DNA of 20,942 nucleotides, taken from Octopus sinensis. Its lineage: Eukaryota. This document shows positions 3,001 to 14,784 of this stretch, piece by piece. The stretch's first letter is position 1. Each line of letters opens with the position of its first letter. A program made the position numbers and the translations under genes. Under the pieces are notes generated by a model, which searched no databases, was not told where the DNA came from, and was given only the letters and a program-made list of their open reading frames with translations. Where the stretch lies: assembly GCF_006345805.1 (NCBI RefSeq), contig NW_021823874.1:1-20942 (forward strand), read 5' to 3'.

Positions 3001-3065
3001 CCAACACCACGCACGATGATACGGTATCAAACGTTATCACCAGCAAAACAACTATTTCTTTGTAA

Positions 3066-3271
3066 ATGATTTCAAATTTTGGCACAGAACCAGCAATTTC
3101 AAGTGGTTAAGACGATTGCATCGATCCTCAATATTCAACTGGTACTTATATTAAAGAAATCCGAAAGGATGGAAGACAAAGTCGACCTCAGCGAAATTTG
3201 AACTCAGAACGTAAAGACGAACGCTAAGCGTTTTGTTCGGCGAGCTGACCATCCTGCCAGCTCGTTGCCTT
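3066..3271 (-). mobile_element. SINE family B copy
   Basis: Homologous to the plus-strand copy at 8979 (GGCGGCGAGCTGGCAGAA..GAGTTCAAATT..GTCGACTTTG.CTT.CATCCTTTCGG..ATAAGTACCAGTT). Tail GTGCCAAAATTTGAAATCAT. Confidence 0.85.
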
Positions 3272-3349
3272 AACTGTTTCTTTATAGTTAGAAATATTTT
3301 AATTTTTTCGTTTGAGAGTAAAAGAACATGTAGCAACGGAATAGCAAAA

Positions 3350-3850: not shown

Positions 3851-4972
3851 ATATTGGGTTGGCAACTAAGCTCCCACGGTCTTTTTATATTTTGGAATTT
3901 ATTGCGTTTTTAAATTTTGGAATCTATTGTTTTCGAGAATTCAATTTTTGAATCATTTTGGAATCTATTTTGTCTTTCTCGCTGCTCGCAACATTTGTGC
4001 TGTGTATGGAGAGTGTGCCATAGCTGAAGGAACCGCTCGTGATTGGTATACCAAGTTCAAAAATGGAAATTTTGAATCAAGGACCCACCTCGTTCTGGCC
4101 GTCCAGTTGAGTTCCATGAAGAGCGATTAAACCAACTTTTGCACGAAAATTTTCGTCAAACGACAAGGGAACTGGCAGAGAAAATGGAATGCTCCCACAC
4201 TGCTATAGAGAAGCATCTTCACTCGATGGAAAGGTTTAGAAGTATGGAGCATGGGTTCTGCATGCTTTAAGTGACGACAACAAAAATCAACGAGCCACAA
4301 TCTCCGCTGGTTTGCTTGGTCGTCACCGCCCAACTCATAGACACAAGCAACGATTTCTTTATCGAATCGTTACTGGCGACGAAAAATGATACCTGTACAT
4401 CAATATAAAGCAGAATAAGGAATGGTTTAACCCCGGTAAAGAAGCGACACCGCGTGTGAACAAGATCTTCATCCGCGTAAAACGATGTTGTGTGTATGGT
4501 GGGACTAGGAAGGGATTATCCATTACGAATTGCTTGAATGGAACCAAAGGATCAACGCGGAACTATGTTCAACAGATGGTACGACTCAACACGGCTATTC
4601 AAGAGAAAAGACCTAATCGTCAGCATGGAGTTCTTCTGCTGCATGACAACGCCCGCCCTCATATCACCAATATGACCAAGGAAGCCATTCAAACGTATGG
4701 CTGGGAAGTGCTGCCACACCCGCCGTACTCTCCTGATTTAGCACCAACGGATTTCCACCTCTTTCGATCTCTTTCAAATGCTATGCGCGGAGTTTCGTTC
4801 AATACTGATGCAAAATTGAGAGCTTGGTCGGATCAATTTTTCGAGTCGAAATCGGGTGATTTCTTCAAACGAGGTATTGAAAATCTTCTTGAACAACAAG
4901 GGTGAATACATTATTGATTAATTAGTTATTTTTTATTAAACCTTTTAAAAAATTAAAATGTAAAAAAACCTA
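3851..4972 (+). mobile_element. Degenerate mariner (Tc1/mariner, D,D34D) DNA transposon
   Basis: Left end TATTGGGTTGGCAACTAAG follows a TA run. The transposase relic lies inside. No matching right TIR is visible before the (TG)n at 4974. Confidence 0.88.
3975..4905 (+). pseudogene. Mariner transposase pseudogene
   Basis: Frameshifted translation shows AARNICAVYG..WYTKFKNG, PRSGRP, TTRELAE, WVLHAL (WVPHEL motif), RIVTGDEK* (stop at 4387-4389), LLHDNARPH and HPPYSPDLAPTDFHLFRSL. Confidence 0.93.
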
Positions 4973-5281: not shown

Positions 5282-5282
<1 letters not shown>

Positions 5283-5362
5283 GCGTCCAATAACACTATC
5301 CTTGTTCCACGTCCTCCCGTTGTTGTATTTTCTCTTTGTGTTTTCATGTTTGGATTAACTTT
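5282..5362 (+). repeat. Second partial copy of the 2641-2846 repeat
   Basis: AGCGTCCA..AACACTAT.CTTGTTCCACGT.CTC.CGTTGTTGT.TTTTCTCTTTG..TTTTCATGTTTGGATTAACT matches 2766-2846. Confidence 0.88.
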
Positions 5363-5381
5363 ATGTTTATATAAATATATA

Positions 5382-5442
<61 letters not shown>

Positions 5443-5631
5443 AATTAGTAAATAAATGGCACAACAAAGTACCGATATTTACTGGAAATAGCGAACGTAA
5501 AAATACGACGCTAAAGTGTAGCTTCACCGCGTATGTATTAGTAAAAATGCGTGTGTGCAACAAAATAGAGAAAAAAACCGTCTTACCTCCAGGGAGAACA
5601 TCTGAAAGATGAAACACCCGGAAAATGGATA

Positions 5632-5710
5632 ATGTGGTACCTGCAGGTTTCAGGTTTTGCAAGATATGTCTCTCACCCATATTTGCTTTACCTTCTTCAG
5701 CCAAACATAT
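5632..5710 (-). ncRNA. Type I hammerhead ribozyme motif with extended stem II and palindromic stem III
   Basis: Minus strand reads TGG-CTGAAGA-AGGT-aaa-GCAA-ATATG-ggtgagaga-CATAT-c-TTGC-aaa-ACCT-GAAA-CCTGCAG-GTA^CCA. It has an intact CUGANGA/GAAA core, 13 bp of stem II, the palindrome ACCTGCAGGT (5639-5648), a GUA cleavage triplet and stem I TGG/CCA. Confidence 0.8.
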
Positions 5711-5851
5711 ACCAAGACGAAACTACGGTGTTACCACATAAATACTAACACACTCGACTGAAATACGGAACGCTAACAGTACGAGAAACGGTGAAGAAGT
5801 TTCAAAATATCAGTAATGCAATACAAAGTATTGCCTTCCAGTAAAAAGTAG

Positions 5852-5892
<41 letters not shown>

Positions 5893-5895
<3 letters not shown>

Positions 5896-5950
5896 GGTGC
5901 CCCAGCATGGCCACAGCTCATTAGCTGAAACTGGAAAAATCAAAAAAAAA
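5893..5950 (+). mobile_element. 3' tail fragment related to SINE family A
   Basis: GGCGGTGCCCCAGCATGGCCACAG..CTGAAAC plus an A-rich tail. Compare 10778-10830. Confidence 0.65.
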
Positions 5951-6235
5951 ATCTAAATCAAACATATATATATACACATATATAAGATTCAGTTAAATTA
6001 GGTACTTAAATTGAGGTACCTCTTTAGGTCAACTGAAATAGTAGCAGAATCGCTGTAAATGTTTTGCTCCGGAGATTTTAAACTATGTTAAATCATTTTA
6101 AATCTCCTTCATTTTGAAGTACATGAATGCATCTGACGAAAATGGTTTATTTACAACGATGTATTGTTTTTATTAATCACTTAAAGGAGTCATTAGAAAC
6201 GGCCGTAATGGATTGACACCTGTACTCTACTGTTA

Positions 6236-8630: not shown

Positions 8631-8732
8631 ATAACCTTGTGTAATATTCGTTATACTTCGTAATAGTTATCGAGCAATCTTTTGCCTTTTGTACATAGAA
8701 TCGGATATAGTTAGTAATGGTTATTGTTAATA

Positions 8733-8950
8733 ATGGTTTCAAATTTTGGCACAAGGCCAGCAGTTTCGGGGGAGAGGGAAGGTCGAATACATCTACCCCA
8801 GTGATCAACTGGTACTTATTTTATCGACCCCAAAATATGATATAAGGTAAATTCAGTCTCGGTGGGATTTGAACTCAGAACGTATTGACAGACGAAATGT
8901 CCCTAAGCATTTTGTCCGGTGTGCTAACGATTGCATTAGCTCACTGTCTT
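8733..8950 (-). mobile_element. SINE family B copy
   Basis: Same head, core and tail as 3066-3271. Confidence 0.85.
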
Positions 8951-8978
8951 GATGATTATCATTAATAATGGTTAATGA

Positions 8979-9486
8979 GGCGGCGAGCTGGCAGAAACGT
9001 TAGCACGCCGGGCGAAATGCGTAGCCGTATTTCGTCTGTCGTTTCGTTCTGACTTCAAATTCCACCGAGGTCGACTTTGCCTTTCATCCTTTCGGGGTCG
9101 ATTAAATAAGTACCAGTTACGCACTGGGGTCGATATAATCGACTTAATCCGTTTGTCTGTCCTTGTTTGTCCTCTCTGTGTTTAGCCCCTTGTGGGTAGT
9201 AAAGAAATAGAAATAGGTATTTCGCCCGTCGCTACGTTCTGAGTTCAAATTCCGCTGTGGTCGACTTTGTCTTTCATCCTTTAGGGGTCGATTAGATAAG
9301 TACCAGTTACGCACTGGGGTCGATGTAATCGATTTAATCCTTTTGTCTGTCCTTGTTTGTCCTCTCTGTGTTTAGCCCCTTGTGGGTAGTAAAGAAATAG
9401 GTATTTCGCCTGTCGCTACGTTCTGCGTTCAAATTCCGCCGAGGTCGACATTGTCTTTCATCCTTTAGGGGTCAATAAAATAAGTA
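8979..9486 (+). mobile_element. SINE family B copy with internally triplicated body
   Basis: One tRNA-like head, then ~185-bp units starting GTATTTCG at 9027, 9217 and 9401 (the last is partial). Confidence 0.9.
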
Positions 9487-12676: not shown

Positions 12677-12690
12677 CCGCCACAAACAAT

Positions 12691-12889
12691 AATGGTTTCA
12701 AATTTTGACACAAGGCTATCAAGTTTGAGGTCCATTACATCGAACCCAGTGCTTCACTGGTACTTATTTTATCGATCACGAAAGAATGAAAGGCAAAGTC
12801 GACCTCGGTGGAATTTGAACTCAGAACGTAAAGAATAATTAAATGCCGCATTTTTGTCCGGCGTGCTAACGATTCTGCCAGCTCGCCGC
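12691..12889 (-). mobile_element. SINE family B copy
   Basis: Homologous to the other family B copies. Confidence 0.85.
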
Positions 12890-12894
12890 ATAAT

Positions 12895-13100
12895 AATCCT
12901 TTCTATTATAGGCACAAGGCCTGAAATGCAGGGGGAGGAGATGAGTCGATTATATCGACCCCTGTGTTTCACTGGTACTTAATTTATCGACCCCGAAAAG
13001 ATGAAAGGCAAAGTCGACCGCGGCGGAATTTGAACTCAGAACATAAAGACAGACGAAATACCGCTAAGTATTTCGCCCGGCGTGCTAACGTTTCTGCCAG
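12895..13100 (-). mobile_element. SINE family B copy, alternative tail
   Basis: Same head and core. The sense-strand tail is CAGGCCTTGTGCCTATAATAGAAAGGATTATTAT. Confidence 0.85.
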
Positions 13101-13110
13101 GTCACAACCT

Positions 13111-14060
<950 letters not shown>

Positions 14061-14070
14061 GGAAACAAAA

Positions 14071-14269
14071 AATGATTTCAAATTTTGGCACAAGGCCAGC
14101 ATTTTTGGGAGGAGATGTTAAGTAGTTTAACTGGTACTTATTTTATCGACCCGAAAGGATGAAATGCAATGTAGGCCCCGGTGGAATTTGAAATCAGAAC
14201 TAAATGACGGACGAAATGCGGCTAAGCATTTTGTCCGGCCTACTAACAATTCTTCCAGCTCGTCGCCTT
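14071..14269 (-). mobile_element. SINE family B copy
   Basis: Homologous to the other family B copies. Confidence 0.85.
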
Positions 14270-14294
14270 AACACGCAATAATAATAATAATAAT

Positions 14295-14511
14295 AATGAT
14301 TTCAAATCTTTGGCACAAGGCCAGCAATTTCGGGGTGAAGCTTAAGCCGATTAGATCGACCCAGTGTTTAAATGGTACTTATTTTATCGACCCCGAAAAG
14401 ATGAAAGGCAAAGTCGGCCTCGGCGGATTTTGTACTCAGAACGTAAAGACAGACGATATAGCGCTAAGTATTTCGCTTGGTGTGGTAACGATTCTGCCAG
14501 CTCGCTGCCTT
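14295..14511 (-). mobile_element. SINE family B copy
   Basis: Homologous to the other family B copies. Preceded by (TAA)n. Confidence 0.85.
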
Positions 14512-14526
14512 CACAATAAAAATAAT

Positions 14527-14742
14527 AATGGTTTCGAATTATGGTACAAGGCCAACAATTTCTGGGGAGTGGGGTAAGTCGATTGCATCGACCCCAGGAG
14601 TTAGCTGGTATTTATTTTATCGATTACGAAAGGATGAAGGCTGAAAGTCGTCCTCGGTGGTATTTGAACTCAGAACGTTAAATCGGAAGAAATGCCGACA
14701 AGCACTTTTCCGGCGCGGTAGCGATACTGCCCGCTCACTGCC

Positions 14743-14744
<2 letters not shown>
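14527..14744 (-). mobile_element. SINE family B copy
   Basis: Homologous to the other family B copies. Followed by (TAA)n. Confidence 0.83.

Positions 14745-14784
<40 letters not shown>

Follow-up and report, generated by a model that had tools for sequence, protein, structure and literature searches.

A putative many-copy non-LTR retrozyme of Octopus sinensis, set between (TA)n tracts and carrying a type I hammerhead motif with a long stem II

The block and its (TA)n flanks

The window, i.e. the whole stretch of DNA analyzed (20,942 nt, positions 1 to 20,942 of the Octopus sinensis contig NW_021823874.1, assembly GCF_006345805.1), is microsatellite-rich animal DNA in which DDE transposase and LINE-like fragments are found. 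A search with the LINE-like fragment returned at least 120 matches, three of them under a species or genus name, including one from Octopus sinensis and one from Clytia, a signal too weak to identify a host by itself. A block of 413 nt resides at 5441-5853 on the minus strand, its RNA running from 5853 to 5441, and is regarded as a retrozyme-type monomer covering 413 nt of a unit of ~430 nt. The sequence flanking the block is (TA)n on both sides. The tract at 5368-5440 lies at the RNA 3' end, and is the predicted primer for target-primed reverse transcription; the tract at 5854-5892 lies at the RNA 5' end. A previous sequence-only reading had set the block at ~5441-5855 between two such tracts: both flanks are there, but the block ends at 5853. 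In the bin 5501-6000 the GC fraction is 0.35. The block is crossed by a stop-to-stop frame of 167 aa (5722-5219, minus strand), the in-block part of which has no Pfam match. No ORF for a reverse transcriptase (RT) or a GIY-YIG endonuclease was found in the block or in the closed ~430-nt unit described below, in line with the earlier statement that the block has no recognisable ORF. Neither self-comparison nor a motif search allowing three mismatches revealed a second copy of the block within the 20,942-nt window.

The hammerhead motif

A type I hammerhead motif is found on the minus strand of the block, and every element was located both by sequence reading and by a motif descriptor in which each stem has at least three pairs. 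Moving along the RNA, the 5' arm of stem I (5713-5701, with a UU bulge at 5705-5704), set from the sequence and the listed pairing, is followed by the catalytic core C3-A9, CUGAAGA (5700-5694), by a stem II of 42 nt (5693-5652), and by the core residues G12-A13-A14 (5651-5649), identified from the sequence and the descriptor. The stem III palindrome ACCUGCAGGU (5648-5639, A15.1 to U16.1) comes next. Residue A17 of the GUA triplet falls at 5638, so that by hammerhead numbering the predicted cut is between 5638 and 5637, and the 3' arm of stem I extends over 5637-5627 in the listed pairing. The CUGAAGA...GAAA core, the long stem II, and the GUA triplet with its cut all lie where the sequence-only reading had placed them.

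Stem II has 13 pairs. From the base upwards, 4 bp are followed by a 3x3 A-rich internal loop, 4 bp, a 1-nt bulge, 5 bp and a 9-nt loop, the basal pair being A10.1-U11.1. Folded in isolation, stem II reaches -10.3 kcal/mol (z -2.3), 6 of 200 shuffles being equally good. In hammerheads loop II normally contacts a bulge of stem I, and stem II usually starts with a G-C pair. Located four pairs above the base, the 3x3 A loop occupies the usual position of loop II, and this would be a natural hammerhead with an internal loop in that place; a tertiary contact between the A loop and the UU bulge of stem I may be guessed. Stem I, previously called short, has indeed only 3 contiguous pairs, but reaches 6, and possibly 10, across the UU bulge. 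The 10-bp palindromic stem III also holds in part. The palindrome is present, but 10 bp are formed only between two copies (predicted duplex energy -17.7 kcal/mol), stem III being reduced to 3 bp and a 4-nt loop within one molecule.

The motif shows what defines a type I hammerhead, with CUGANGA, GAAA and NUH arranged around stems I-III and an open stem I. Of 14 CUGANGA cores in the window, the descriptor matched only the one at 5713-5627. When the window was dinucleotide-shuffled 300 times and both strands were scanned, three loose matches were obtained, one of them equally good. The motif is thus rare per window but not per genome scan, and the case rests on family evidence. Rfam returned no hammerhead family at E up to 10, for the whole window or for the block alone, and no other credible family; the length of stem II is the likely reason of the missing hammerhead match. 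The term "intact-looking" used for the motif is right to the extent that all the elements are present, but has to be set against the Rfam result and the best fold of the lone copy, which differs. A scan of metagenome contigs with the hammerhead pattern gave no matches. An 8-base complement to the cut-site strand, at 5739-5732, was set aside, about one such pair being expected by chance in 413 bases.

Predicted folding

The minus strand of the block folds at -116.4 kcal/mol (z -4.6), and none of 200 shuffles was as good; the z score of the plus strand is -2.6. Compared with 31 repeat-free 413-base stretches of the window, taken on both strands with 12 shuffles each, the block minus strand ranks second lowest of 62, and the lowest overlaps a long inverted repeat. 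In the prediction the strand forms a branched rod that carries the hammerhead at its tip. The rod is closed by an 11-bp helix, in which 5845-5835 pairs with 5488-5478 (probabilities 0.5-0.99), and which would bring the ends of the unit together, leaving the joint between them in a mostly unpaired loop. A side hairpin is formed by 5624-5586, with pair probabilities of at least 0.9 in 6/8 and at least 0.8 in 5/5 pairs. Of the 22 listed sequence variants, 8 disrupt a predicted pair, 5 preserve one and the other 9 lie outside pairs, and their partners are unphased: the rod has, as a consequence, no covariation support.

The best fold of a lone copy lacks the hammerhead, 5655-5651 being paired with 5643-5639, and the active fold costs 4.8 kcal/mol. 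Two copies behave differently in the predictions. For pairs of the segment 5713-5627, a double hammerhead is predicted at -41.7 kcal/mol. Two single hammerheads reach -24.8, which is 17 kcal/mol worse, and two copies each in its best single fold reach -39.4. In the two-strand optimum (-45.1 kcal/mol), each copy keeps its stem II and the 10-bp stem III is formed between the copies.

A dispersed repeat family

At least half of the sampled words of the block are present in 20 of the 24 listed runs, which carry three organism labels and come from eight studies. The block is many-copy by this measure as well, and the single-copy outcome that would have spoken against the earlier reading is not what was found. 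Contigs from four runs (X2, X5, X8, X10) were aligned to the block at 80% likeness. X8 is guessed to be DNA, X5 and X10 are guessed to be RNA, and X2, whose kind is unrecorded, was taken as DNA from its size and depth; none of the listed runs holding the block is recorded as RNA. Such contigs show neither strand nor ends nor circularity, and their depth is no copy number. Contigs matching the block number 818 in X2, 391 in X8, 7 in X5 and 6 in X10. In X2, 176 are at least 99% identical to the block, 266 fall in the 95-99% band, 292 in the 90-95% band and 84 under 90%. A single locus cannot yield such a spread across identity bands, hence the block is a many-copy repeat. The near-identical copies suggest that the family is young.

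In X2, 32 contigs enter (TA)n at the 5441 end (loose end at 5447), and the offset at which the repeat starts in them, in a consensus read by hand, is that of the window. Insertion into (TA)n with a recurring end is on this ground a family trait. A different rearrangement was noticed in the same run, where one contig of depth 256 joins 5546 to 5601, the unit being fused to itself on opposite strands. Inverted, truncated copies are typical of Penelope-like insertions, and this joint resembles them.

Variants and sister families

Within 5627-5713, variants reaching at least 5% are a GUA to GUC change, one substitution in stem II (5686), which breaks a pair, and one insertion in stem II (behind 5681). 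The GUC form at 5638 makes up 5% of summed depth in X2 and 43% in X8. At the same 5% threshold, no variant of the catalytic core is listed in any of the four runs.

Sister families were read by hand. In the sister variant reached from the X8 loose end at 5681, N7 is the only core residue changed, and the stem I bulge reads CU. The X10 and X5 sisters keep GAAA and the 3' strand of stem I, which is retained in sister families at loose ends in X2, X5 and X10; stem III is the 6-nt ACCGGU in the former and a 12-nt perfect palindrome in the latter, both followed by GUC, each palindrome being taken from one low-depth loose-end contig. The central tetramers UGCA, CCGG and GCGC are all palindromic, which has a chance of 1 in 16 each by simple arithmetic, the families being related. 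A symmetric loop is needed for a dimer, not for a hairpin. As judged from the sequences, the hammerhead appears conserved in the way function would predict, the changes seen (N7, bulge, GUC, palindrome length) being those that are tolerated. The notion that the motif arose by chance inside an unrelated repeat could appeal to the one shuffle in 300 that was as good, a frequency expected in a genome-wide scan, and to the Rfam result; it can practically be discarded, since sister families keep GAAA, NUH and the stem I strand while swapping perfect palindromes.

The same variants bear on whether the hammerhead is dead, the block being then a retrozyme-derived repeat, and its RNA-like contigs the outcome of DNA or of read-through of tandem loci, with no circle formed. 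The competing fold of the lone copy, the basal A-U pair of stem II, where G-C is usual, and the guessed kinds of the runs all leave space for this, as do published data: eight of nine predicted retrozyme dimers gave no cleavage in vitro (bioRxiv 10.64898/2026.07.22.740005), and the Poseidon element inserts in vitro with hammerhead cutting dispensable (PMC11167929). The lack of listed core variants, the restriction of changes to tolerated ones and the near-identical copies, which suggest youth, point the other way, and an inactive hammerhead is held to be improbable.

In X2 summed depth is highest at 5455-5496, with 392,000-636,000 compared to 10,000-52,000 for the stretch 5609-5853, and many contigs have loose ends at 5449-5457 and 5488-5492. 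These two features indicate that several families share ~35 nt beside the priming end; truncation at the 5' side would likewise raise depth near 5455-5496. The common motif, delimited by depth and loose ends, maps at 5490-5457 on the minus strand, near the RNA 3' end. It comprises 5488-5478, the 3' strand of the closing helix, and 5473-5458, which forms a small hairpin. The motif is a candidate recognition site for a reverse transcriptase. A scan of viral contigs with this 3' motif gave no matches, and the two found in metagenome contigs, bare 19-base matches with unlike flanks, were judged to be chance. A second shared stretch is at 5585-5618, short sister contigs aligning at 5585-5625. One sister contig in X5 has part of the closing-helix partner just past the 5441 end, as if that family also formed a closed unit.

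Just 3' of the hammerhead, and within the stretch shared with sisters, 5601-5578 on the minus strand reads as AG-ATG, five codons and a splice-donor-like GAG/GTAAG. Introns can occur in Penelope pseudo-LTRs; the arrangement seen here may be due to chance.

Head-to-tail joints and the closed unit

In three of the four runs (X2, X5 and X10), under two organism labels, contigs pass from 5853 to 5441/5443 through 17-19 further letters. By virtue of this head-to-tail joint, the unit closes at ~430 nt with no recognised ORF. In X5 a 460-nt contig is made up by 5587-5853, the extra letters and 5443-5614; it exceeds one unit, has no space for an ORF, and differs from the window copy by two substitutions and two inserted letters, the hammerhead being identical. 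A 362-nt contig of X10 spans the same 5853/5441 joint. The earlier proposal of a non-autonomous ribozyme-bearing retroelement gains support from the joint and from the ORF-less unit that it closes.

An alternative is that an autonomous Penelope-like element (PLE) that targets (TA)n was 5'-truncated at insertion and left the block as its 3' end (pseudo-LTR), the joints being partial tandems of truncated ends. PLEs of the Hydra clade, an octopus family included, share (TA)n and hammerheads near the 3' end, as described in PMC8557442; the summed depth declines from the RNA 3' end to the 5' end, as 5' truncation predicts, and contigs overrunning 5853 leave room for ORF-bearing copies. The recurrence of one joint in three runs and two organism labels, and a contig closing the whole unit without an ORF, fit this poorly, and the predicted 11-bp helix between the block ends would suit a defined unit. 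Moreover, five motifs of the block were sought in the consensus files that accompany PMC8557442 (Naiad, Chlamys and Hydra) and none matched, and the octopus Hydra and Naiad 3' ends published there are, by eye, unlike the block. A truncated PLE is, on balance, an unlikely source, albeit the likeliest of the alternatives to a retrozyme.

The joint contig accounts for all the depth at 5847-5853 in X5 (12.5) and X10 (7.77). In X2 the joint share at these positions is 39.1 of 19,013 (0.2%), from two contigs whose short side is 21 letters, and no 5853/5441 joint is listed in X8. From these figures, the RNA-guessed runs may contain the unit as a circle or multimer and not as stray monomer DNA, and most DNA copies may be monomers or fragments, tandems looking rare in DNA; the hint of enrichment is weakened because short repeat contigs probably undercount joints. 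No drop in depth was seen at the cut site, as would be expected of a cleaved linear template, contig depth being a poor measure of it. The best reading of the window copy is a monomer inserted by retroposition and lacking 17 nt of a complete unit.

The size, the strong rod-like fold and the closed contig in an RNA-guessed run would also be expected if the block were the integrated trace of a viroid-like circle replicating from RNA to RNA and occasionally reverse-transcribed into (TA)n, and RNA-to-RNA copying has been proposed for retrozymes (PMC7761336). Yet a hammerhead core is found on one polarity only within the block, hundreds of DNA contigs account for the RNA without replication, and the X5 contig is ~99% identical to the genomic copy. 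Such an origin is very improbable.

Proposed identity and mechanism

The reading preferred is that of a many-copy non-LTR retrozyme, for which paired-hammerhead cutting, circles, and copying into (TA)n by a Penelope-like enzyme are predicted; its probability is put at about 0.68. Tandem source loci would give rise to multimeric RNA, in which neighbouring hammerheads may pair via the palindrome, as the folding models suggest, and then cut after GUA or GUC, by analogy with known retrozymes. A host ligase of the RtcB type would then join the ends of each monomer into a circle, as reported for other retrozymes (PMC7229834). The off-state fold of the lone copy could protect the monomeric circle; the metazoan retrozyme circles published in that paper mostly keep the hammerhead free.

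The anatomy of the copies suggests how insertion might proceed. A nicked (TA)n end would pair with ~5 bases next to 5441 in the joint, with one G-T wobble, and the start of priming would be set at one position of the junction loop, which is U-rich and single-stranded; cDNA copying would be halted 17 bases before one full unit. The window copy begins and ends at a distance from the cut site and runs through it. If it was made by reverse transcription, a linear monomer fresh from cutting cannot have been its template, which must have been either an uncut multimer or a ligated circle. With its one hammerhead, the window copy is most likely a dead end. That an enzyme suited to the task exists is plausible, because both Hydra and Naiad elements insert into (TA)n and both are represented by octopus families (PMC8557442). 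Internal priming on AT-rich DNA from an uncut RNA template has been shown for Poseidon of Anolis carolinensis (PMC11167929).

A more tentative extension, for which the odds are well short of even, is that hammerhead-bearing circular-RNA families of the octopus share a module (closing helix and 35-nt motif, next to a single-stranded U-rich loop) that recruits the RT of a (TA)n-targeting PLE and sets its priming site in the fashion of telomerase, one turn around the circle yielding a monomer in (TA)n. If this is true, animal retrozymes would possess, in such a module, a signal from which partner and priming can be recognised. The dimer helices of the families, with 6, 10 and 12 bp, would in addition form a natural series.

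Relation to known elements

Non-LTR retrozymes of metazoans have been described in coral, in the mussel Mytilus galloprovincialis and in axolotl (PMC7229834; bioRxiv 10.64898/2026.07.22.740005). The octopus unit is similar in being protein-free, a few hundred bases long and under 50% GC, with one type I hammerhead per unit, a head-to-tail joint, dispersed monomers and an RNA that is strongly self-paired (predicted here). At ~430 nt, it is at the upper end of the retrozyme range (150-450 bp quoted, 350-390 in the mussel). Differences were also noted. Stem II is 42 nt long with an internal loop, vs. 4 bp and a loop in the known retrozymes, and the position at which copies give way to (TA)n recurs, a feature setting them apart from the metazoan retrozymes described in these sources. 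A 35-nt motif is common to several families, whereas the review PMC7761336 states that metazoan retrozymes lack a conserved motif that would indicate their partner. Retrozyme circles have been published for metazoans; for the octopus unit, contigs cross the joint in two runs guessed to be RNA, and may stem from a circle, a multimer or DNA.

According to the same bioRxiv text, solo monomers and a Penelope origin of retrozymes are already on record. The class is known; what is unusual is the targeting of (TA)n with a recurring end, the long stem II and the 35-nt cross-family motif. A defined unit, a recurring (TA)n end and a shared motif make it testable which enzyme moves non-LTR retrozymes and how it is primed, and the finding would extend retrozymes to the octopus lineage. 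Among the reports listed by literature searches for octopus or cephalopods, none concerned this family.

The Hydra clade of PLEs, which inserts into (TA)n and includes the octopus family Hydra-1_Obim, features hammerheads with a stem III of 3-4 bp, a loop of 1-3 nt and a location roughly 100-250 nt from the 3' end (PMC8557442). Shared with the block are (TA)n, a sense-strand type I hammerhead near the 3' end, a short near-palindromic stem III and a GUA, GUU or GUC triplet. Unlike these PLEs, the octopus unit has no RT or GIY-YIG ORF; its hammerhead and 3' end differ from those of Hydra-1_Obim, and its stem II is much longer than in all the Hydra rows tabulated in that paper.

The combination of palindromic stem III and loop into one inter-copy helix likens the block to newt satellite 2, avocado sunblotch viroid and PLE hammerheads (PMC4209133), and a dimer helix of 10 bp has already been described for Aedes aegypti (PMC3088659). 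Unlike in those dimer-acting hammerheads, a 3-bp stem III is also possible in the lone copy, and the palindrome ends duplicate the base of stem II, giving rise to the competing inactive pairing. Poseidon resembles the model in its use of nicked AT-rich DNA, a fixed internal start of reverse transcription and a template uncut by the hammerhead. However, it is autonomous, primes without target homology and has an optional tail of 30-40 nt (PMC11167929); in the block, a short pairing with (TA)n could form, and 17 nt are missing.

Other repeats in the window

A second minimal type I hammerhead-like motif is found on the plus strand at 2708-2741, within a repeat spanning ~2645-2849. CUGACGA at 2712 is followed by one additional A, by a stem II of 4 bp and by GAA; stem III is a palindrome of 4 nt, the triplet is GUU and stem I has 4 bp. 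The descriptor missed this motif because stem III is too short. It fits the minimal PLE hammerheads described in PMC4209133, and is unrelated to the family of the 5441-5853 block. The 3' part of the same repeat (2766-2849) is 89% identical to 5282-5364, plus strand, which is separated from the block by (TA)n only; the tract beside the block seems to have taken more than one insertion.

On the minus strand, 439-690 is a frameshifted remnant that by eye looks like the C-terminal part of a Hydra-type GIY-YIG endonuclease. The fragment 439-687 gave no match in Pfam or in a search of longer proteins, and nothing above noise in Atlas; with these searches blank, the reading relies on the comparison by eye. 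Fragments of other mobile elements, both under the Pfam cut-off, are on the plus strand: a DDE transposase fragment at 4390-4905, which we take to be mariner-like, and a LINE-like fragment with a zf-RVT match at 13313-13744. A SINE-like repeat of octopus type forms many tandem and inverted copies at 8728-9486, 12684-13135, 14063-14762 and 3065-3274; an inverted repeat, long but imperfect, extends over 8782-9143, and the predicted fold of 8889-9301 has a z score of -6.3.
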